A DNA stretch of 64,000 nt, taken from Escherichia phage Phi1. Where the stretch lies: the sequence record EF437941; one strand, written 5' to 3'. Under the pieces are notes generated by a model. It was not told the DNA's origin, made no database searches, and worked only from the letters and a program-made list of their open reading frames with translations. The position numbers were made by a program, and so were the translations under genes. Of this stretch, positions 3,206 through 60,427 are shown piece by piece. Each line of letters starts with the position of its first letter. The stretch's first letter is position 1.

Positions 3206-5029
3206 TTATGATTGCATCCAAATTTTGCGTTGATCTGCATCTTCACTATAGAGCAAATCGAATAGCTCTTTATAGTTTTCCGGCAACGTGATGATCTCCA
3301 TTACAGGATCGTTGATCACGCGATGATAATCTGATTCTGTAAGAGATGCTAACCCTTTGATATATCGAATGCTATAACCTTTGATATTATCTCGGTCGTT
3401 CTCAAAATCTTCTAGGTCATAATACCATCGAACATCATCACCTTTCTTTGGTTCCGCAATGATAATAGGTGTTTTGATAAACCGGATTCGACCATCTTCG
3501 AACAATTCAGGCCAACGTGCAAAGAAAGAGATCAGACTAGGTTTAATAGACCCGATCCCGTCAGTATCAGCGTCAGTCATAATCGCAATATTTTTGTATT
3601 GCATAACTTCCAATGCATCAACACCAAATTGCAAGCCAGTGATCGCCATGATGTTAAAAATTTCGGCGTTCTTAACGATCTTTGCCTCCGGTTGTTCCCA
3701 CGTTGTAAGAGTTTTGCCTCGCAACGGGAAACCGCCATGTAAATCTTGATCACGTACAGAGATCAGATAGTTGATCGCGGAATCACCTTCCGTCAAAAAC
3801 AGGGTAGTTTCTGCGTCAGTTCCAATAAGGTTAGCTTTAACGTGCTTTGCTACCTTAGCCCGTTTTGCTGCCTTTGCTGCCTTAGTCGCTGCCGCTTTAT
3901 CTGCTGCCTCTTTGCGTGCCAGGACTACAGCAATAATAGGCATAATAATGTTTTCTTTCTTCGCAATGACTTTAGCCAGCTTTTTAAAATCCAGATCAAT
4001 ATGACGCTTGATATCACCAGTTGGATTAGTCAAGCGTTCTTTTGTCTGTGAATCAAAACGAAGGTTAGGCAATTCACGAACAATCAAAATACAGGTCAAT
4101 CCAGACTTAACCGCAGCTTTAGTAACATCAACCTTATATTCTTTCTTGATTCGTTTTACAATCTCTTCACAAAGATCATCTGTCACGTAGTCTACGTGTG
4201 TTCCCCCGTTTTTGGTAAACAGACCATTAGCAAAGGATACTGATTTAAAACCTTCTCCCTCGACCGCAGGAACTAGGGCAAGTGAAAAGTTTTTATCTTC
4301 AATGACAAACGGATCATCATTGTATAGTTTAGCATAATCCTTGAACTTACTAACAATACGTTTACCATTAAACTTAAACGTGATCTTAGGAAAGATTACG
4401 CTCAATGATTGCAGACGATCATGAACAATATCTAAAACAGAGTTGTCCATCATATAACCTTCGAAGTGGTCGAAGTCTGGGCAAAATGTAACCTTTGTTC
4501 CCTTCAATTTTGATGGTTTTGATGACCATGTGATATTTTCAGCACCGTTTGTGCACTGTACGGTCATTTCTGTTTCGCCGTCACAAGTTACACCAGTAAA
4601 CCAATCGCTAAAGAAATTTGACAACGACGACCCCACACCGTTCATACCTTGCGTTAATCGATTGGTATCATCAAAGTTAGACCCTGCTTTTGTTCGTGTC
4701 CATGCGGCTACAGGTTGAGGAATCTGTGTACCCTCTGGGGTAGTAACCATATGTTGAGGAATACCGCGACCATTGTCTGTTACCGTAACAATATTGTTTT
4801 GGATATCGACGCTAATCACATTGGCAAATTCAAAATTAGTGCGGATCGCCTCGTCTACAGAGTTATCGATGATCTCATCAATGATTTTAACCAGTCCAGG
4901 AACATATGAAATTTTTGTCCATTTACCGAACAGGAAACGTTGATGTTCTTCGTAAGTTGTTGATCCTATATACATTCCTGCACGCTTAAGGACATGTTCA
5001 CGATCAGATAAAATGCGAAACTCACTCAT
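3206..5029 (-). CDS. 39: DNA topoisomerase II large subunit (gp39, 39/60 fused form; GyrB-like ATPase + Toprim)
   Basis: 607 aa; GHKL ATPase motifs (NGRGIP, GxxGxG), Toprim EGDSA and DxD motifs; size matches unsplit gp39 of T2-type phages. Confidence 0.9.
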   Translation of the reverse strand: MSEFRILSDREHVLKRAGMYIGSTTYEEHQRFLFGKWTKISYVPGLVKIIDEIIDNSVDEAIRTNFEFANVISVDIQNNIVTVTDNGRGIPQHMVTTPEGTQIPQPVAAWTRTKAGSNFDDTNRLTQGMNGVGSSLSNFFSDWFTGVTCDGETEMTVQCTNGAENITWSSKPSKLKGTKVTFCPDFDHFEGYMMDNSVLDIVHDRLQSLSVIFPKITFKFNGKRIVSKFKDYAKLYNDDPFVIEDKNFSLALVPAVEGEGFKSVSFANGLFTKNGGTHVDYVTDDLCEEIVKRIKKEYKVDVTKAAVKSGLTCILIVRELPNLRFDSQTKERLTNPTGDIKRHIDLDFKKLAKVIAKKENIIMPIIAVVLARKEAADKAAATKAAKAAKRAKVAKHVKANLIGTDAETTLFLTEGDSAINYLISVRDQDLHGGFPLRGKTLTTWEQPEAKIVKNAEIFNIMAITGLQFGVDALEVMQYKNIAIMTDADTDGIGSIKPSLISFFARWPELFEDGRIRFIKTPIIIAEPKKGDDVRWYYDLEDFENDRDNIKGYSIRYIKGLASLTESDYHRVINDPVMEIITLPENYKELFDLLYSEDADQRKIWMQS

Positions 5030-53870: not shown

Positions 53871-54355
53871 TAGTTGATACCTAAGCCAATGAAAATAGGT
53901 TGGTCTTCTACATTACCCATCCCAACACTAAGTCGATTTACTTCTAAAAACTGCAATACGCTGTCAGTAAATCCGCGCATGGTAGTATCTAGGATAAAAA
54001 TTGTTTTGTCAAGACTACGACCTCGCCATGTGATCGGATTCAGGAAAGTTCGGATCGACGTACAATCTACATTTGAAATATTTACATTTTCACCGCGACC
54101 GCGATCTCGGATCGTTTTGACATGTTCCCGCGTTGTTGAAACGATAAAGACACTATAGCCTTTTCGCGTATAATGATCATATAACTTGATTGTAGCGTCT
54201 GTATGCCCTGTTTGACGGCCTAAATTGATTGAGACGATGGAATCTAGGTCATCAGCAAAATTGCGTCGCTTACGGCGTTCTATGATGCCATTTACGGCAG
54301 ATACACACGCAGCATAAATCAAATCTTTACTTTCTAATTTTACATCAATATTCAT
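53870..54355 (-). CDS. hypothetical protein
   Basis: 161-aa ORF. Confidence 0.5.
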   Translation of the reverse strand: MNIDVKLESKDLIYAACVSAVNGIIERRKRRNFADDLDSIVSINLGRQTGHTDATIKLYDHYTRKGYSVFIVSTTREHVKTIRDRGRGENVNISNVDCTSIRTFLNPITWRGRSLDKTIFILDTTMRGFTDSVLQFLEVNRLSVGMGNVEDQPIFIGLGIN

Positions 54356-54417
54356 GGTAAAGTCTCCAGTGAACGGGGAGAGATCCTTAGATGGTCTCCC
54401 CGTTGATGGTTAATATT

Positions 54418-54807
54418 TTATTTTTGGTCTGGGTATTTGCTGTGTGGTAATTGTAGATGAGGACCATCTTTAAACGATACCCAATCCCCACCCCATTCAA
54501 CAGGAACACCCAATTCTCGACCAGCTTGTTTAAATGCATCAGCGATCATGCGGTAATATTTCATATTCCATGTATCTTTATCTTTCGGATACGCTACAAC
54601 GTCAACCGCGAAACCGTGAAGATGACGAGATTTCATAGTCTTAGATTTACCTTCCGCAACATATTTCTTTTGCGTTGCGAGACTACGCACACCTTCCGTA
54701 ATACCAAAATCGACCGGAGTCAGTTCTAACGCACGATGAACGACTTTTACCAGGTCTGGATGTACACCAACAAGCCGATCTTTGCTTCTTTGAGATAATT
54801 TAAACAT
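54418..54807 (-). CDS. endolysin, L-alanyl-D-glutamate peptidase (peptidase M15/VanY-like)
   Basis: 129 aa; SRHLHGFAVDV zinc-binding motif (SxHxxGxAxD) and C-terminal His; occupies the position of lysozyme e. Confidence 0.8.
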   Translation of the reverse strand: MFKLSQRSKDRLVGVHPDLVKVVHRALELTPVDFGITEGVRSLATQKKYVAEGKSKTMKSRHLHGFAVDVVAYPKDKDTWNMKYYRMIADAFKQAGRELGVPVEWGGDWVSFKDGPHLQLPHSKYPDQK

Positions 54808-54835
54808 TATTCACCCCCTTTGTGAGTGATAATAT

Positions 54836-55027
54836 TTAGATTCCGGCGATCCTGCATAGAGTTCTTGTATTAGCACCAATAAGGATAGCATTAACGACAA
54901 CCATTCCCCAATCAACCCACGGATTATTATAAATGTTAAATCCGTTTGTTAGGCCAAATACAAGCATTCCAGTACACATACTCAGAGCAACAATCAACAT
55001 CACGGTAAAACCAAATGCAAATCTCAT
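54836..55027 (-). CDS. small membrane protein
   Basis: 63 aa, two hydrophobic helices. Confidence 0.45.
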   Translation of the reverse strand: MRFAFGFTVMLIVALSMCTGMLVFGLTNGFNIYNNPWVDWGMVVVNAILIGANTRTLCRIAGI

Positions 55028-55028
55028 A

Positions 55029-55295
55029 TCATTTTCCTTTTCTCTGTTTACGTTTATAAAAGTAATACATTACATCATCACGTCCGGTGATCCAACATGC
55101 TAGGGCAGTAAACAGGTTTACAATTCCCAACACACCTACTGACGCGGCGCTGTCAACAGACATAGGAACAGTAAAGGCCATAGCTAACATAGCAACGCCA
55201 CAAATGACATTAAGCACCATTATAATAAGACCGAAGAAAACCATTGTCAATCCTCCCAAATAAGAAAACCAACAATCACGCCAGTGATAAGACAT
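55029..55295 (-). CDS. small membrane protein
   Basis: 88 aa, hydrophobic. Confidence 0.45.
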   Translation of the reverse strand: MSYHWRDCWFSYLGGLTMVFFGLIIMVLNVICGVAMLAMAFTVPMSVDSAASVGVLGIVNLFTALACWITGRDDVMYYFYKRKQRKGK

Positions 55296-55438
55296 GATGC
55301 GCCGCTAATAAGACAACCCGCGCCAAGTGATTCCCACCAGATCAGAGAAGCGACAATAACGCAAAATCCCCAGACTACCGCAATCACAACATAGGCAATG
55401 GTCGCCCAAAACATATATTTGTTCATAATAAACCCCAT
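55247..55438 (-). CDS. small membrane protein
   Basis: 63 aa, hydrophobic. Confidence 0.4.
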   Translation of the reverse strand: MGFIMNKYMFWATIAYVVIAVVWGFCVIVASLIWWESLGAGCLISGASCLITGVIVGFLIWED

Positions 55439-55611
55439 TCACCAAACAAATAAGAAAAAAGCCATATCAACAGAAACGAGGCAATTGATCCGGCAAGCAA
55501 AATGATATTAGAGAATCCGCCGTCTATCCAGGCGACAAAACAGAATACGCCAGTATAGAAGCATAAACCCATTACAAAGCATACTATAAGCAACCATAGA
55601 CAAAACGCCAT
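55423..55611 (-). CDS. small membrane protein
   Basis: 62 aa, hydrophobic. Confidence 0.4.
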   Translation of the reverse strand: MAFCLWLLIVCFVMGLCFYTGVFCFVAWIDGGFSNIILLAGSIASFLLIWLFSYLFGEWGLL

Positions 55612-55672
55612 AGAAAGCCCTCCATCGAGATAAATTAGTGCGGGTAGGGGACTGCACTACCCGCTTTGTTAA

Positions 55673-55831
55673 TCAACGCAGAGCTTGTTCTAGCGCGATC
55701 CCAAACCATCCACAAACAACGCCCATACAGACAGCTACAAGAAGATTCATTCTCTCTTTAGGGATCATTGCAATCATAACAACAACCATACAGAAAGCCA
55801 TTACCATTGAAGTTAACATTTGTTCAACCAT
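55673..55831 (-). CDS. small membrane protein (52 aa)
   Basis: manual translation MVEQMLTSMVMAFCMVVVMIAM... Confidence 0.35.
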   Translation of the reverse strand: MVEQMLTSMVMAFCMVVVMIAMIPKERMNLLVAVCMGVVCGWFGIALEQALR

Positions 55832-55833
55832 TA

Positions 55834-56172
55834 TCACACCTTTAAAGTCATAGACGCATAAACATTAATGCCAGGCCAGTTAGGATCGCAATTATACTCA
55901 ACATCCCACAAATAAAGCGGTTTAGATGTATCAGCCAAGTTTTTAAAATCTTCTACCCACATTTCAATGCTATATGATGGATAAACTAGGCTGTCATATC
56001 CTCCGTAACGTTGGCCTACTGGTCGGTCAGTAAAAACTACCTCAAGATCCGGTAATTCTTTTTCAAGGATAACCGCCAGCGCATAAATCAGACGGTCTTC
56101 CTTGTTACGCTGCCGAAGGACCGTTGTCAGTTGGTTTTTCTGGTTCACTAGCAAGCACCTCCACATTTTCAC
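55834..56172 (-). CDS. hypothetical protein (start uncertain; overlaps upstream ORF by 68 nt)
   Basis: 112-aa ORF. Confidence 0.4.
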   Translation of the reverse strand: MKMWRCLLVNQKNQLTTVLRQRNKEDRLIYALAVILEKELPDLEVVFTDRPVGQRYGGYDSLVYPSYSIEMWVEDFKNLADTSKPLYLWDVEYNCDPNWPGINVYASMTLKV

Positions 56173-56425
56173 AGAATGAAATTTTCACAGACACAATTTT
56201 ACCATAAGTGAAGAATGAATATACATTATCGATATATTCAACGTCACCTACAATCACATCAAACTGCGGATCAGCAACCGCCGCAACATATTCTACCAGT
56301 TCATCAAGAGAATGCAACTTAATTTCATCAATTCGGCTGTATTTGGTTGCATCTTTGATTTTAAAACCACGTTCTTTCAGCTTATCAATTAGAATTTCAC
56401 GCGGAGTTTCAAACAGTTTGCTCAT
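56105..56425 (-). CDS. hypothetical protein
   Basis: 106-aa ORF with GAGGATT RBS. Confidence 0.5.
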   Translation of the reverse strand: MSKLFETPREILIDKLKERGFKIKDATKYSRIDEIKLHSLDELVEYVAAVADPQFDVIVGDVEYIDNVYSFFTYGKIVSVKISFCENVEVLASEPEKPTDNGPSAA

Positions 56426-56446
56426 AATATAATCCTCACATTAAAT

Positions 56447-56647
56447 CTAAAATTTGTTAACGACGAATTGCATAATTAGACTAATCACAAACATTGCAAA
56501 CCAAGTATAAATGCAACAGATAAAAGCTACATACAATTCAATCTGGTCAGAGAATACACCGGGTAAAAGCATTAGCAAAATAACAACAGTAAAGACGCTA
56601 GCGATACCCGCAACAAAACCAATATCATTTTTACTAATCGTCATCAA
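56447..56647 (-). CDS. small membrane protein
   Basis: 66 aa hydrophobic. Confidence 0.45.
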   Translation of the reverse strand: MMTISKNDIGFVAGIASVFTVVILLMLLPGVFSDQIELYVAFICCIYTWFAMFVISLIMQFVVNKF

Positions 56648-56853
56648 GTCACCGTTTTGTAAAGAAACACAATAAAATCCAAGACAAGAAAGACAGTGTA
56701 AATGATCATCGTCAAGACAGTAAACACTGTCAAATTTTCATCGTTAGTTAATTCATAGTCGCCCATCCATACAATCACAAGATATAGCATTGAAAGAATG
56801 GAAGCACCTACGAAGTTAAAAAACATATTCTTGAGCGTCATATTAACAACCAT
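56644..56853 (-). CDS. small membrane protein
   Basis: 69 aa hydrophobic. Confidence 0.45.
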   Translation of the reverse strand: MVVNMTLKNMFFNFVGASILSMLYLVIVWMGDYELTNDENLTVFTVLTMIIYTVFLVLDFIVFLYKTVT

Positions 56854-57025
56854 CGCGGCTTAAGTCAACAGCAATTGCATACAGCATAATGAATATGCTA
56901 GCAGATCCAAGAATCAATACACCCTCACATTTTGAAACTCGCTCATCAAAATGTAACATTATCCATCCGAGGATGTTAAAGGCGCAGACCGCGCCTATGT
57001 TCGCTAACCAATTAATCTTTTTCAT
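56843..57025 (-). CDS. small membrane protein
   Basis: 60 aa hydrophobic. Confidence 0.4.
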   Translation of the reverse strand: MKKINWLANIGAVCAFNILGWIMLHFDERVSKCEGVLILGSASIFIMLYAIAVDLSRDGC

Positions 57026-57033
57026 AATATACC

Positions 57034-57360
57034 TTAGAAAGAAACAGTTTTCAAGAAATCCAGATTTTCAGTACCGAAAACAGAAAAGTAGTGTTTTCCT
57101 TTTTCGGTTTTAGAGAAAGCGATTGTCTTCTCTACATGGTGACGGAAGCCAGACAGACGATCACCCAGGTCAAGGCGGCAAGCGTAAGTAGTGCCGTTTT
57201 CGAAAGTAACCTCGATTTGAGTTTTGTCATATTCGCTTTCATAGGCTTTTGCTGCCGCGTCCTGTGCTTTACGCTCGAAGTCTTCGAAGTGGAATACTTC
57301 GTTTGCGTTAGCGAATACAGAAGATTCAGAGAAGATAACTTTAACAGATACTGGTTTCAT
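57034..57360 (-). CDS. hypothetical protein
   Basis: 108-aa ORF with cassette RBS. Confidence 0.5.
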   Translation of the reverse strand: MKPVSVKVIFSESSVFANANEVFHFEDFERKAQDAAAKAYESEYDKTQIEVTFENGTTYACRLDLGDRLSGFRHHVEKTIAFSKTEKGKHYFSVFGTENLDFLKTVSF

Positions 57361-57402
57361 TTTGATACTCCTTAGTAGTTCGTGTTTCGTTTCGATGGGT
57401 GT

Positions 57403-57431
57403 ATTATGCTATACACCCTCTTGTGTGTCAA
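57403..57431 (-). promoter_or_regulatory. early promoter
   Basis: TTGACA-N17-CATAAT. Confidence 0.5.
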
Positions 57432-57439
57432 CAACTTTT

Positions 57440-57628
57440 TTAGTCTTTTTTCATAATTTCTAGAGCAGTTTCTACAGCACCTTTCCAACCCTCCCACATA
57501 ATGGACATAGTAATGAAGTTAAAGCACCCGCAGGAATCAACCTTTTTAGAGATAAACCATTCAACAAATCCTTCGCTCATACCATGCTCTTTAGCGGATT
57601 CGCGTAATTGTTCAATTTGGTCTTCCAT
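57440..57628 (-). CDS. hypothetical protein
   Basis: 62-aa ORF. Confidence 0.45.
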   Translation of the reverse strand: MEDQIEQLRESAKEHGMSEGFVEWFISKKVDSCGCFNFITMSIMWEGWKGAVETALEIMKKD

Positions 57629-57637
57629 AGTATCACC

Positions 57638-57826
57638 TCAACACTTAACGTTATTCAAACGATTTTGAAAGTACATATAGCAAGCATAATTTTGCTTTGG
57701 TTGTACCGTATCAGATAGACACGCTTTTACAGCCTCGCGGTCCGATGGATCTACACCCTCAGCTTTAAGTAATGCTAAAATCTGGTTATATCGTACTCTT
57801 AGTTGTACTAATGGTTTATCCCCCAT
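57638..57826 (-). CDS. hypothetical protein
   Basis: start at internal ATG after GGGGG RBS. Confidence 0.45.
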   Translation of the reverse strand: MGDKPLVQLRVRYNQILALLKAEGVDPSDREAVKACLSDTVQPKQNYACYMYFQNRLNNVKC

Positions 57827-57836
57827 ATTACCCCCA

Positions 57837-58064
57837 TTATAGTTGATCAGCAATGTATGCGGTGCATTTGCGGAGTTTAGCCATAGCACCACCTTTCATG
57901 TCGCTTGCGCCTACAATGTTCATGATCTCTAAGCGATCAGCCGGATTCAGTCTAGTAGCCCAGATCTGGTTAGCCAGTTCCATTTTACCCATCTGCGGTT
58001 CCATCTCAAACAGTTCACGCTCAAAGTCGATAATTTCTTTTGCGGCGTCTTTAAAGTTAATCAT
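57837..58064 (-). CDS. hypothetical protein
   Basis: 75-aa ORF with cassette RBS. Confidence 0.5.
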   Translation of the reverse strand: MINFKDAAKEIIDFERELFEMEPQMGKMELANQIWATRLNPADRLEIMNIVGASDMKGGAMAKLRKCTAYIADQL

Positions 58065-58093
58065 TTTGATTCTCCCGTTTCGTTGATGGTTGT

Positions 58094-58122
58094 ATTGTAG
58101 GGGAGTTATCCTCCCCTGTCAA
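58094..58122 (-). promoter_or_regulatory. early promoter (PeSL-type)
   Basis: TTGACA GGGGAGGATAACTCCCC TACAAT: spacer is a hairpin. Confidence 0.5.
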
Positions 58123-58130
58123 CACTTTTA

Positions 58131-58316
58131 TCAGAAATATGCAATATAGTTTGCCAGTCCTACAGAGTCATCATTCGGCATTGCTTTTACTGCCAGTTCA
58201 AACCCTGCTTCAACTTTCTGTTTAGCGGATTCTTCGTTATAACCCCAGATTACCAGAATAGCTACTACGTTTTCTTTGCTTACTGCTTTCAGTGCTTTAG
58301 TGATGCGACGTGCCAT
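58131..58316 (-). CDS. hypothetical protein
   Basis: 61-aa ORF. Confidence 0.45.
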   Translation of the reverse strand: MARRITKALKAVSKENVVAILVIWGYNEESAKQKVEAGFELAVKAMPNDDSVGLANYIAYF

Positions 58317-58362
58317 AATTTGATTCTCCGTTTAAGAAAGTGTGTTTCGTTTCGATGGGTGT

Positions 58363-58391
58363 ATTATGCTATAGGCCGGATCTGGTGTCAA
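58363..58391 (-). promoter_or_regulatory. early promoter
   Basis: TTGACA-N17-CATAAT. Confidence 0.5.
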
Positions 58392-58415
58392 CAACTTTTT
58401 TAAAAAAATTTTAGG

Positions 58416-58444
58416 CAATAAAAAAGCCACTCCGAAGAGTGGCT
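58416..58444 (-). terminator. rho-independent terminator
   Basis: AGCCACTCTTCGGAGTGGCT hairpin (UUCG loop) followed by T6. Confidence 0.6.
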
Positions 58445-58448
58445 TATA

Positions 58449-58590
58449 GGGAAGGTAGCGAATCTTCCTTGTCTCCAACCTGCTAGCGGCCTAGCAAGTG
58501 AATGCTTTAGCGTACCGGATCGCCCACATACGCTGTAATAAATGCGGCTAGGTGACGTCCAAATCATTCTAACCGCGCTGTCTTTAGTTC
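58449..58590 (-). ncRNA. candidate small structured RNA (untranslated region between late-promoter motif and terminator)
   Basis: no plausible ORF; two stable hairpins; TATAAATA motif at 58596..58603 upstream and terminator downstream. Confidence 0.25.
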
Positions 58591-58594
58591 ACTA

Positions 58595-58813
58595 TTATTT
58601 ATATCGCTTTCTCTCGCGACGTTTTTGATCTTCTTCCTTGATAGAGTTAAATGCATCAAAAAGACACATGACACTGATAATGAACATAACCGTATTTTCT
58701 ACGATATCCAACGGCTTCGCATCAGTACAGATCACCCAAACGGTAAGAAATGCAAATAAGGCAGAAGAGATCACAAGCATGATACTTGCTAAGATATAAA
58801 AAGTCATTTTCAT
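58595..58813 (-). CDS. small membrane protein
   Basis: 72 aa, two TM helices then basic tail. Confidence 0.45.
   Translation of the reverse strand: MKMTFYILASIMLVISSALFAFLTVWVICTDAKPLDIVENTVMFIISVMCLFDAFNSIKEEDQKRRERKRYK
58596..58603 (-). promoter_or_regulatory. T4-type late promoter motif TATAAATA
   Basis: exact TATAAATA on minus strand. Confidence 0.35.
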
Positions 58814-59004
58814 GGTTTTACCTCAATTCTTCGATATTCATCACACATCCACGCAGTAAGCAAGAATCCCAACACATAAGCAACAAAATACGTTAATGCT
58901 TCTTCTGGTTCGGTGCTATGCGCCATCATCAGACCAGCGAGAAAGGTCTTAACAATTACATTTAAAATAATTAGCCACGCAAATAATTTCATCGTTTGCC
59001 CCAT
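58810..59004 (-). CDS. small membrane protein
   Basis: 64 aa. Confidence 0.45.
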   Translation of the reverse strand: MGQTMKLFAWLIILNVIVKTFLAGLMMAHSTEPEEALTYFVAYVLGFLLTAWMCDEYRRIEVKP

Positions 59005-59228
59005 TTCGGACGAGTCTTTTCAAACTTATACATTACGCAACAATCTCGAATCATCCACGTAACAAGAGCACCAGTCAACACAGACAACACACAGAAGAAG
59101 TAAAACGGTCCGGTTGCATTATCAACATGAGCAAGCCATGTAAAGAAAACACATGCAAGGAATGTAAAGAACATCATAAAACACAAGAAAGCAAAATATT
59201 TTATGCTACTCATAGCGCCACCATACAA
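58989..59228 (-). CDS. small membrane protein
   Basis: 79 aa. Confidence 0.45.
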   Translation of the reverse strand: MYGGAMSSIKYFAFLCFMMFFTFLACVFFTWLAHVDNATGPFYFFCVLSVLTGALVTWMIRDCCVMYKFEKTRPKWGKR

Positions 59229-59316
59229 CAGATCATAAGAAAACCCAACGCAATAAGAATTGCATCAAATTTAGTGAACTCCGGTCCACCTATCAACATC
59301 ATTCGTTCCTGTTCAG

Positions 59317-59559
59317 TTATAGATCACAGAGCCATCTTAAAGCACCACATAAAGCGAGCAGAATACTAGGTATAAACGAGATCAAAACAAGTTTGCAAAA
59401 ATCATCTAAGGTAACACCGGAATAGCTACCAACTGTAACAACACCGATCATAAGACACAGAAAGAAAACAAATGCAATCAGAAACAAAGTATTGCTAAAC
59501 AGTTTAGTGATCATTAGACACCCCACGACGGTCAATTTCAAAAACTTTTTTATCATCAA
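59317..59559 (-). CDS. small membrane protein
   Basis: 80 aa. Confidence 0.45.
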   Translation of the reverse strand: MMIKKFLKLTVVGCLMITKLFSNTLFLIAFVFFLCLMIGVVTVGSYSGVTLDDFCKLVLISFIPSILLALCGALRWLCDL

Positions 59560-59707
59560 CGAAGCATGTCACAACTGCCTCGTTGACTTCCGCAAATTGT
59601 TGTGTTACCCACTTAAGGTCAGATCGAAACAATGTTCTATTAATAACAAATGTTTTACCGCTCTTATCCTTACCCATAAATTTTGCTTTAACCATATCCA
59701 ATTCCAT
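59504..59707 (-). CDS. hypothetical protein
   Basis: 67-aa ORF with AAGGTGA RBS. Confidence 0.45.
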   Translation of the reverse strand: MELDMVKAKFMGKDKSGKTFVINRTLFRSDLKWVTQQFAEVNEAVVTCFVDDKKVFEIDRRGVSNDH

Positions 59708-59716
59708 ATTATCACC

Positions 59717-59875
59717 TTATTTGCTAATCGCTAAACCTAATCCGAAGAGAGCACCCGACGCTACAGTATACCCGAAAGTTTCAAAGGCAGTAAAGATATC
59801 TAAGCCACCAGCTAACAGAGTTGCAGTAAACAGAGTACCAGCTACGAACATAAAAGTTTTACCGATAAATTTCAT
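59717..59875 (-). CDS. small membrane protein (52 aa)
   Basis: manual translation MKFIGKTFMFVAGTLFTATLLAGGLDIF... Confidence 0.4.
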   Translation of the reverse strand: MKFIGKTFMFVAGTLFTATLLAGGLDIFTAFETFGYTVASGALFGLGLAISK

Positions 59876-59906
59876 TTTGATTCTCCTTTCGTTTGTTTGT
59901 GGGGGT

Positions 59907-59935
59907 ATCTTACTACCCCCGTTTCATGTTGTCAA
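59907..59935 (-). promoter_or_regulatory. early promoter (PeSL-type)
   Basis: TTGACA-N17-TAAGAT inside GGGGGTAGTAAGATACCCCC hairpin. Confidence 0.5.
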
Positions 59936-59941
59936 CTATTT

Positions 59942-60316
59942 TTAAGAATATTTTACTTCGTCTACAATGTCTTTCATGACATTGATTTCCATTCCGGTCA
60001 GAACACGTTGGAACATGTGCTGAACATACGCTTTCAGGTATTCATTTGATGGCTTGCTATCGAAAGTCTTTTTAGTGTAGTAGTCATCACCGAAAGCTAC
60101 TGTAATTACATTTTCGTCGTCGTTCCAAGCGATATAAGCAAATTTGCCGTTATCCCAGAAGCGAGCACTAATTGCTACTTTTGTTGAATCGAATCCTACT
60201 TCGCTGTGAGATTCAAGAACTACTTGCGTGCCAGTTTCTTTATGAATGTAGTAGCGGGATACTAAGTCAAAGTTACGGGTGTAGTGACATTCGAACTTAT
60301 CTTTAAACATCATCAT
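59942..60316 (-). CDS. hypothetical protein
   Basis: ORF with GGAGAATCAAAA RBS. Confidence 0.5.
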   Translation of the reverse strand: MMMFKDKFECHYTRNFDLVSRYYIHKETGTQVVLESHSEVGFDSTKVAISARFWDNGKFAYIAWNDDENVITVAFGDDYYTKKTFDSKPSNEYLKAYVQHMFQRVLTGMEINVMKDIVDEVKYS

Positions 60317-60354
60317 TTTTGATTCTCCCAAGTGTTTTTCGTTTCTATGTGTGC

Positions 60355-60383
60355 ATTATGCTATAGTCGTTTATGGTTGTCAA
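60355..60383 (-). promoter_or_regulatory. early promoter
   Basis: TTGACA-N17-CATAAT. Confidence 0.5.
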
Positions 60384-60391
60384 CACATAAA

Positions 60392-60420
60392 AACAAAAAA
60401 ACCCCGAAAAATTTTCGGGG
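60392..60420 (-). terminator. rho-independent terminator
   Basis: CCCCGAAAATTTTTCGGGG hairpin followed by T-run. Confidence 0.6.
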
Positions 60421-60427
60421 TATAGAA

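Follow-up and report, generated by a model that had tools for sequence, protein, structure and literature searches.

The window analysed here, a 64,000-nucleotide (nt) stretch of Escherichia phage Phi1 (sequence record EF437941), carries an island of 14 small hydrophobic open reading frames (ORFs) that occupy about 5 kb of the minus strand (54.8–59.9 kb), 12 of which are predicted by TMHMM to have two transmembrane (TM) helices. A preliminary description of this DNA had pointed to two runs of such ORFs, at 56447–57025 and 58595–59559, in what it took to be a T4-like phage. Small ORFs are indeed present at both places, all on the minus strand. Megablast of positions 54300–60400 matched 57 phage records, every one of them Krischvirus (RB49, GEC-3S, JSE and phi1-like) at 90–98% identity, and 50 of the 57 span this segment end to end; judged by these matches, the window phage is an RB49-like Krischvirus and thus T4-type, as had been supposed. 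GC skew is below 0 throughout, essentially every gene of the region lies on the minus strand, and a search for tRNA genes found none. Gene names follow the RB49 and GEC-3S annotation, with o plus a number (for example, o110) denoting the window orthologue of the RB49 ORF of that number (RB49 ORF110c). The small hydrophobic ORFs, with lengths in amino acids (aa), are as follows:

54836–55831, minus strand: cluster A, five small hydrophobic ORFs, o103–o107 (RB49 ORF103c–107c), of 63, 71, 59, 62 and 52 aa.
56447–56644, minus strand: o110 (RB49 ORF110c), 65 aa, predicted two-TM hairpin, cluster B; full-length match to phrog_15379.
56644–56841, minus strand: o111 (RB49 ORF111c), 65 aa, predicted two-TM hairpin with an acidic loop, cluster B.
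56843–57025, minus strand: o112 (RB49 ORF112c), 60 aa, predicted two-TM hairpin, cluster B.
58595–58813, minus strand: o118 (RB49 ORF118c), 72 aa, two predicted TM segments and a basic C-terminal tail, last gene of cluster C.
58810–58992, minus strand: o119 (RB49 ORF119c), 60 aa, predicted two-TM hairpin, cluster C.
58989–59213, minus strand: o120 (RB49 ORF120c), 74 aa, two predicted TM segments and a basic tail, cluster C.
59210–59302, minus strand: o121 (RB49 ORF121c), 30 aa, one predicted TM segment (TMHMM 13–35), cluster C.
59317–59514, minus strand: o122 (RB49 ORF122c), 65 aa, predicted two-TM hairpin, the fastest-evolving member, cluster C.
59717–59875, minus strand: o124 (RB49 ORF124c), 52 aa, glycine-rich hydrophobic hairpin (TMHMM 7–29 and 33–50) that opens the predicted dmd operon.

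We set start sites from the RB49 and GEC-3S annotation, full-length matches to PHROG profiles, and Shine-Dalgarno (SD) motifs. The first run then holds three ORFs, as originally counted, and the second holds five rather than four, the 30-aa, one-TM o121 having been missed. Starts at 56644, 56841, 58992 and 59213 are backed by PHROG profiles, annotation and SD positions over longer ORF calls. An ORF does have its 3' boundary at 59317, but the start first assigned to it, a TTG at 59559 overlapping the adjacent gene dmd, did not hold: the PHROG profile covers residues 16–80 of the long o122 ORF, and the start is therefore most likely the ATG at 59514, which annotation and an SD motif also favour, rather than the upstream TTG that runs into dmd. 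A purine-rich SD-like motif precedes every annotated ATG. The least certain gene is o121, whose start differs among genomes. The overlapping stops and starts of the preliminary description proved accurate: cluster C contains three ATGA overlaps (58810–58813, 58989–58992 and 59210–59213), with o119 bounded by one at either end, and cluster B contains a TGATG junction at 56644 and a single base between 56843–57025 and 56644–56841.

The TM-rich character of these ORFs, also part of that description, was borne out by hydropathy, published predictions and structural models. Kyte-Doolittle plots give two TM segments for each flagged ORF and one for o121, in agreement with the TMHMM helices tabulated for the RB49 orthologues (Nolan et al. 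2006, Additional file 2), where RB49ORF110c, for instance, has helices at 10–32 and 39–61. AlphaFold2 models of o118 (H2–29/H34–71; predicted local distance difference test score, pLDDT, 85.5) and o110 (H5–30/H34–64; pLDDT 79.4) are both helical hairpins. Most island proteins have lysine or arginine in their N- and C-terminal segments and an acidic inter-helix loop, which by the positive-inside rule would make both termini cytoplasmic and the loop periplasmic. The clear exception is o107, for which the basic PKERMN loop points to an inverted orientation; o105 and o106 are nearly uncharged, and the charge pattern of o112 is ambiguous. Basic C-terminal tails are found in o104, o118, o119 and o120. 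On these predictions and models, the products are very small inner-membrane proteins, mostly helical hairpins.

Their clustering is far beyond chance. A crude ORF call over the 64-kb window placed all small minus-strand two-TM ORFs within 54.8–59.9 kb, and in RB49, 13 of the 20 TMHMM-positive novel ORFs fall inside this 5-kb stretch (Fisher p = 7e-9). The ORFs themselves are already known: their GenBank entries date from 2003, 57 genomes have them annotated, their TM helices were tabulated in 2006, and in one Krischvirus record 11 ORFs of the region are labelled "putative membrane protein". What seems not to have been stated before is that roughly two-thirds of the genome's predicted membrane ORFans (ORFs that are database orphans) sit in one 5-kb, predicted early island. 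As a compositional aside, the strongest AT skew in the window (+0.119 on the plus strand) is at 54001–56000; a positive skew at 54–56 kb is consistent with T-rich hydrophobic codons on the minus coding strand of cluster A.

T-rich sequence can stay open by chance and read as hydrophobic peptides, and one explanation of the island would be that its ORFs are spurious or decaying. They are very short, have no homologues beyond the genus and evolve faster than their neighbours; o121 has just 30 aa and a variable start, and o111 has a homopolymer frameshift in two records. We aligned each window gene with 12 Krischvirus loci and counted substitutions by a consensus-based, not tree-based, Nei-Gojobori method, in which the o110 counts are tiny. 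With the one exception of o120, whose frame is intact in 11 of 12 loci, each small ORF is intact wherever it was aligned (o110, 8 of 8; o112, 11 of 11; o121, 12 of 12; cluster A, 12 of 12), and the reading frames are also intact in four metagenomic contigs (L018–L021). In the annotated frame, the ratio of nonsynonymous to synonymous differences per site (pN/pS) ranges from 0.12 to 0.58 across the small ORFs: 0.12 for o124, 0.14 for o120, 0.16 for o118, 0.19 for o119, 0.37 for o112, 0.37 for o121 (12 changes only), 0.58 for o122, and 0.12–0.41 for the cluster A genes. Pooled, the 14 TM ORFs give 0.29 (Fisher p = 3e-39), cluster B 0.38 (p = 3e-4) and cluster C 0.29 (p = 4e-18), compared with 0.10 (p = 1e-83) for 12 soluble neighbours. 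Four of the five alternative frames give a pN/pS of about 1 or more; the fifth, an antisense frame whose third-codon positions coincide with those of the coding frame, likewise gives a low value, a caveat on the selection test. This strong purifying selection, together with intact frames in 12 genomes and four metagenomic contigs, SD motifs, translational coupling, and motifs kept at 45% identity, speaks against chance or decay, an explanation that we regard as already largely refuted and very improbable. Comparative evidence of this kind indicates that the ORFs are real, constrained protein genes.

Homologues were found only close to home. Each ORF matches only its own PHROG, with function unassigned, and none of the 14 reached threshold in Pfam, PADLOC or NCBIfam. 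A tblastn search of the 14 ORFs against 50,697 phage records matched only the 57 Krischvirus records, 41 of which have the full set in one place. A word-indexed search of 5.8e9 proteins returned just three protein clusters for o120, all at least 96% identical, and for o110 returned matches of 74–89% identity in metagenomic assemblies, among which three fetched contigs keep the Krischvirus gene order. An exhaustive phmmer search of 1.84e9 representatives with o118 yielded its own cluster and two tandem-repeat artefacts only. Foldseek against BFVD gave no match at E <= 0.001, and what it did list were uncharacterised viral hairpins, none significant; the helical hairpin fold is too simple for an informative structural search. 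A dmd-synteny search for intermediates found Dmd only in Krischvirus (at least 90% identity) and in T-even phages (<60%), with nothing between. The homologues found are, by their sequences, all Krischvirus or Krischvirus-like. Conservation in relatives, which the preliminary description had raised, therefore holds within the genus (12 Krischvirus loci) but extends to no phage found outside it, and the island is a genus-specific accessory set located in the hyperplastic region that separates the endolysin gene from 57B.

Two other origins for such an array were examined and rejected. A single paralogous family or set of tandem duplicates was not supported by blastp (best E 0.016 in a 14-sequence database), by PHROG membership (each ORF in its own) or by hhalign, where the best score of 21.1 compares with 22.8 for reversed-sequence controls; the resemblance between the o104 and o120 tails is not significant. 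Fragments of a split polytopic transporter gene were ruled out by the ORFs' own SD motifs and ATGs, their individual conservation and the lack of consistent partial Pfam matches.

Although constrained, the TM ORFs change quickly: relative to their soluble neighbours, their ratio of nonsynonymous to synonymous differences (Nd:Sd) is 2.7-fold higher (p = 2e-9). Alleles are mosaic, with o107, o111, o116 and o122 each falling into two classes of 82–86% nt identity that are distributed differently among genomes; o122 alleles are 84–89% identical at the nt level. In phages JSE, phiS, SSG23 and Makalu, a single hairpin of 64–66 aa, 32–34% identical to o110, replaces both o110 and o111. The replacement ORF lies at 4548–4742 of the JSE locus and corresponds to window positions 56447–56841, between flanking genes that are >95% identical. 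In a metagenomic contig (L019; SRR29290924_9968, 368–749), o112 and o111 are 47% and 45% identical to their window counterparts, and the adjacent o113 and o109 are 94% identical. Specific motifs survive such divergence: o111 alleles at 74% and 45% identity retain the acidic ELTNEEN loop and the WDF.VFLYKTVT end, and divergent metagenomic alleles likewise keep GIY.W..FV at the core of o110 and MIPKDRMN in the loop of o107. A T6-to-T5 frameshift near the 5' end of o111 (window ~56815–56820) truncates the annotated ORF in W115 and JK32 and is either a sequencing error or the natural inactivation of a dispensable gene. Purifying selection combined with evolution about three times faster than that of neighbouring genes and with deep allelic replacement seems not to have been described for this region before, and this evolutionary pattern suggests conflict genes.

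We predicted the operon context from sequence motifs and the GEC-3S annotation, which has promoters and a terminator at the same places as our predicted sites. Sigma70 promoter-like sites close to consensus are found at 60383, 59935, 58391, 58122 and 57431 of the minus strand, and terminator-like sites at 60421–60401 and 58445–58424. The signals and neighbouring genes that frame the clusters are as follows:

54418–54807, minus strand: M15 endolysin gene, T5-type; cluster A lies directly upstream of it.
57034–57360, minus strand: o113 (RB49 ORF113c), soluble, 108 aa, with an LPD25 domain; heads the predicted cluster B operon.
57403–57431, minus strand: predicted sigma70-type early promoter of o113 and cluster B (TTGACA-17-CATAAT, 11 of 12 matches; annotated in GEC-3S), within a 61-nt repeat family, D1.
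58424–58445, minus strand: predicted intrinsic terminator at the end of the dmd/cluster C operon (9-bp GC-rich stem and T run; annotated in GEC-3S, Makalu and G2248).
59504–59707, minus strand: dmd by annotation, an antitoxin gene against RnlA/LsoA; 47% identical to T4 Dmd, E = 2e-14.
59907–59935, minus strand: predicted sigma70-type early promoter of o124-dmd-o122...o118 (TTGACA-17-TAAGAT, 10 of 12 matches; annotated in GEC-3S).

The cluster C transcript would accordingly be predicted to run o124-dmd-o122-o121-o120-o119-o118 and to end at a terminator for which a TransTerm match has been reported (Nolan 2006). Cluster B would follow o113, and read-through into o109, o108, cluster A and the endolysin gene may occur. 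The late-promoter motif TATAAATA has three occurrences in the window, none of them upstream of cluster B or C in a scan of the window. From these motifs we infer early timing in vivo, which would suit genes for host takeover or exclusion. The 61-nt direct repeats of family D1 (57382–57442, 58342–58402 and 60334–60394) contain TTGACA-17-CATAAT and a conserved downstream leader; two copies adjoin stem-loop terminators, and three of the promoters belong to the family. In sequence, the family fits the PeSL cassettes (early promoter plus stem-loop) of RB49 and phi1, whose description includes promoter and terminator assays (Arbiol et al. 2010, PMC2839356). The traits of PeSL-associated ORFans recur in the island, namely orphan ORFs, a hyperplastic region and repeated sigma70 promoter and stem-loop cassettes. 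The two sets come from the same phage group and share database-orphan ORFs behind such cassettes, but the subject of that paper is the shuffling mechanism, and it makes no mention of membrane proteins. The o110/o111 switch, for its part, looks like deep allelic replacement within an operon, not at PeSL boundaries.

The gene neighbourhood raises counter-defence as one role for the hairpins, which would neutralise inner-membrane defence effectors as Dmd does RnlA/LsoA in the cytoplasm; pore-forming or depolarising abortive-infection effectors, Rex- or Pif-like systems and membrane toxins would be the targets. Cluster C shares its predicted operon with dmd, and cluster B follows o113, which matches Pfam PF18840 LPD25 (large polyvalent protein-associated domain 25; E = 3e-14, 53.8 bits vs a cutoff of 27) and is 94–100% conserved, with 94–97% even in divergent metagenomic contigs. 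We take LPD25 to be a domain family of polyvalent proteins linked to counter-defence. The syntenic region of T4 carries internal-protein genes, of which IpI is reported to block GmrS-GmrD and IpII a fused GmrSD, and fast evolution, mosaic alleles and restriction to one genus would also be in keeping with such a role. However, none of the ORFs matches a known anti-defence or defence protein, and nearly the whole set is kept in all 57 genomes, whereas anti-defence genes are often patchy. Counter-defence is thus a possible but doubtful explanation.

The preliminary description held that mini-membrane proteins often mediate superinfection exclusion in T4-like phages. This was overstated, as T4's sole known small membrane exclusion protein is Imm, Sp being periplasmic. 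T4 Imm nevertheless offers the closest comparison in form: it is 83 aa long, with two hydrophobic segments followed by a charged C-terminal tail, and its size, architecture and timing (predicted, in our case) are matched by o104, o118, o119 and o120. More broadly, the ORFs share the Imm-type traits of a small inner-membrane protein with hydrophobic helices and early promoter-like sites, with timing again deduced from motifs. By contrast, T4 has one such protein where 14 unrelated ones occur here, and there is no sequence or profile similarity between them: the Imm profile (PF14373 Imm_superinfect) matched none of the 14 ORFs at E <= 0.1, blastp of Imm against them gave a best E of 2.9, and tblastn of Imm through the entire RB49 sequence reached no better than E = 8.8. 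According to a 2026 preprint, Imm stops genomes from entering by binding gp29, the tape-measure protein, within the membrane, and has a periplasmic N-terminus, unlike the both-ends-inside topology proposed for these ORFs. T4 Spackle (sp, gp61.3) resembles cluster C in position, being an early exclusion gene two genes downstream of dmd in T4. It differs in kind: Sp (97 aa) has a signal peptide, is secreted to the periplasm and inhibits gp5 lysozyme, and the Krischvirus ORFs (30–74 aa) have no soluble domain. Sp shows no similarity to the ORFs, and its best tblastn match in RB49, a spurious one, falls within gene 41 (E = 0.049).

Neither annotation nor tblastn revealed an imm or sp homologue in the complete RB49 genome, which has a single 62-aa ORF between uvsX and gene 43. 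It keeps t, rI, pseT.3/pseT.2, rIIA and rIIB; pseT.3 and pseT.2 are the spanin pair in T4. A genus that is without imm and sp while keeping rI and t seems not to have been pointed out previously. In T4, lysis inhibition via RI and T probably requires that the DNA of a superinfecting phage stay outside the cytoplasm, and a phage that keeps rI and t is therefore expected to keep some exclusion function.

Given the full T4-type lysis set, the lack of an imm or sp homologue, and fast evolution with allelic replacement, superinfection exclusion or immunity at the host inner membrane is a reasonable guess for the island and our best single one, although we hold it tentatively, and counter-defence and host-membrane takeover are nearly as good. 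An RB49-like phage would make the hairpins within minutes of infection, from sigma70-type early promoters and as translationally coupled strings; once inserted in the inner membrane of the host, the hairpins would shield the infection under way at the level of the envelope. Individual hairpins might bind membrane-inserting ejection proteins of incoming phages, as Imm binds gp29, so that a second genome would be kept from crossing the inner membrane and the hairpins would functionally replace the imm and sp that the genus lacks. Several points weigh against this. Neither sequence nor profile comparison links the ORFs to Imm, Sp or any protein annotated for exclusion; 14 unrelated hairpins exceed the need of one exclusion function; and dmd and the LPD25 gene, as neighbours, are equally indicative of counter-defence. 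The analogy of position with sp is a weak one, since dmd has been relocated in Krischvirus and lies next to 57B and not, as in T4, in the 41–61 region. Finally, the literature searched gave no report of superinfection exclusion or lysis inhibition in RB49-like phages, and no functional, phenotype or expression study of these ORFs.

The hairpins might also form a battery of immunity-type proteins, like orphan bacteriocin immunity arrays, each directed against a different membrane-inserting attacker. Tape-measure or ejection proteins of rival phages, pore-forming colicins and abortive-infection pores would be the attackers, and allelic replacement would track the resulting arms race. We consider this unlikely as it stands. 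Among bacteriocin- or colicin-type immunity families, the search yielded only a sub-threshold match of o119 to NF042932 BlpZ_fam (13.8 bits vs a cutoff of 50). In a variant of this proposal, translationally coupled neighbours would form one hetero-oligomeric membrane complex. As a whole, the island offers a compact and testable set of candidates for the genus's missing exclusion functions. It bears on the means by which T4-type phages other than the T-evens shut out competitors or withstand defences that act at the membrane, and on the role of the abundant uncharacterised helical hairpins of phages.

Small membrane proteins could also act on the host alone. The hairpins might block or divert machinery of the host inner membrane (transporters, division or cell-wall precursor enzymes, proteases, or respiratory complexes) with no role in conflicts between phages or with defences. 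Small single- and double-TM phage proteins do bind host membrane enzymes, as phiX174 E does MraY; the island genes are predicted to be early, like most T4 host-shutoff genes, and their conserved loop and tail motifs suggest specific partners. Highly conserved host targets, however, fit poorly with alleles of 45% identity and gene replacement in a genus that is otherwise ~97% identical, and T4, which grows on the same host, has only three or four such ORFs in its syntenic region (vs.8–57B) and none that are homologous. The T4 genes in question, trna.4, e.3, e.4 and e.2, are like the island ORFs in being hydrophobic, uncharacterised and in the same hyperplastic region; trna.4 encodes a 61-aa two-TM hairpin, and e.3 and e.4 are adjacent and encode two-TM proteins with basic tails. 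They differ in being only four, mostly larger (102–130 aa), and without detectable homology to the Krischvirus set; T4 61.4 likewise has no homology to the island ORFs. The density of small hydrophobic genes is therefore specific to Krischvirus in comparison with T4, and takeover of host functions is a somewhat unlikely sole purpose for them.

Lysis timing is a further conceivable role. Class II holins and pinholins, such as S21 of lambdoid phage 21, are proteins of some 70 aa with a highly charged C-terminus, whose two TM segments leave both termini inside. Two TM segments, a charged tail and, by the positive-inside rule, both ends inside are also predicted for o104, o118, o119 and o120, and cluster A abuts the T5-type M15 endolysin gene, with which class II holin, pinholin or antiholin-like hairpins could be paired. 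There is also a weak sub-threshold match of o107 to Phage_holin_5_2 (PF16079, E = 0.054, 14.2 bits vs a cutoff of 29.2). Yet class II holin genes are late genes beside the endolysin gene, whereas clusters B and C lie 1.6–4.7 kb from it, behind predicted early promoters and with no late motif upstream. RB49 moreover already has a holin (t), an antiholin (rI) and homologues of pseT.3/pseT.2, and none of the ORFs matched a holin family at threshold. This makes a lysis role quite improbable.

Downstream of cluster C, an untranslated stretch of ~170 nt that runs from the o118 stop to the terminator (58424–58603, minus strand) is near-invariant, at 96–100% identity in 13 Krischvirus loci, whereas the adjoining o118 drops to 87.5% aa identity. 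The stretch starts with TATAAATA (58596–58603, overlapping the Y-K-stop codons of o118) and ends in the intrinsic terminator. It folds better than shuffled sequences (z = -2.83), and changes fall mainly in one predicted apical loop. We found no covariation in it, no Rfam match and no similarity to T4 rnaC or rnaD; an Rfam scan of 53–62 kb brought no family near threshold. The stretch may be a small late RNA or a regulatory 3' untranslated region.

Two further minus-strand genes lie among or beside the clusters. At 59942–60316, o125 (ORF125c) has a weak, sub-threshold match to T4 Gp30.7 (PF06919, E = 0.004, 17.3 bits vs a cutoff of 27). The 61-aa o117 (ORF117c; 58131–58316; Pfam DUF7421) is the most conserved gene of the region, with 98–100% nt identity in all loci and 100% protein identity in a divergent metagenomic contig (L020), and it has its own PeSL promoter.

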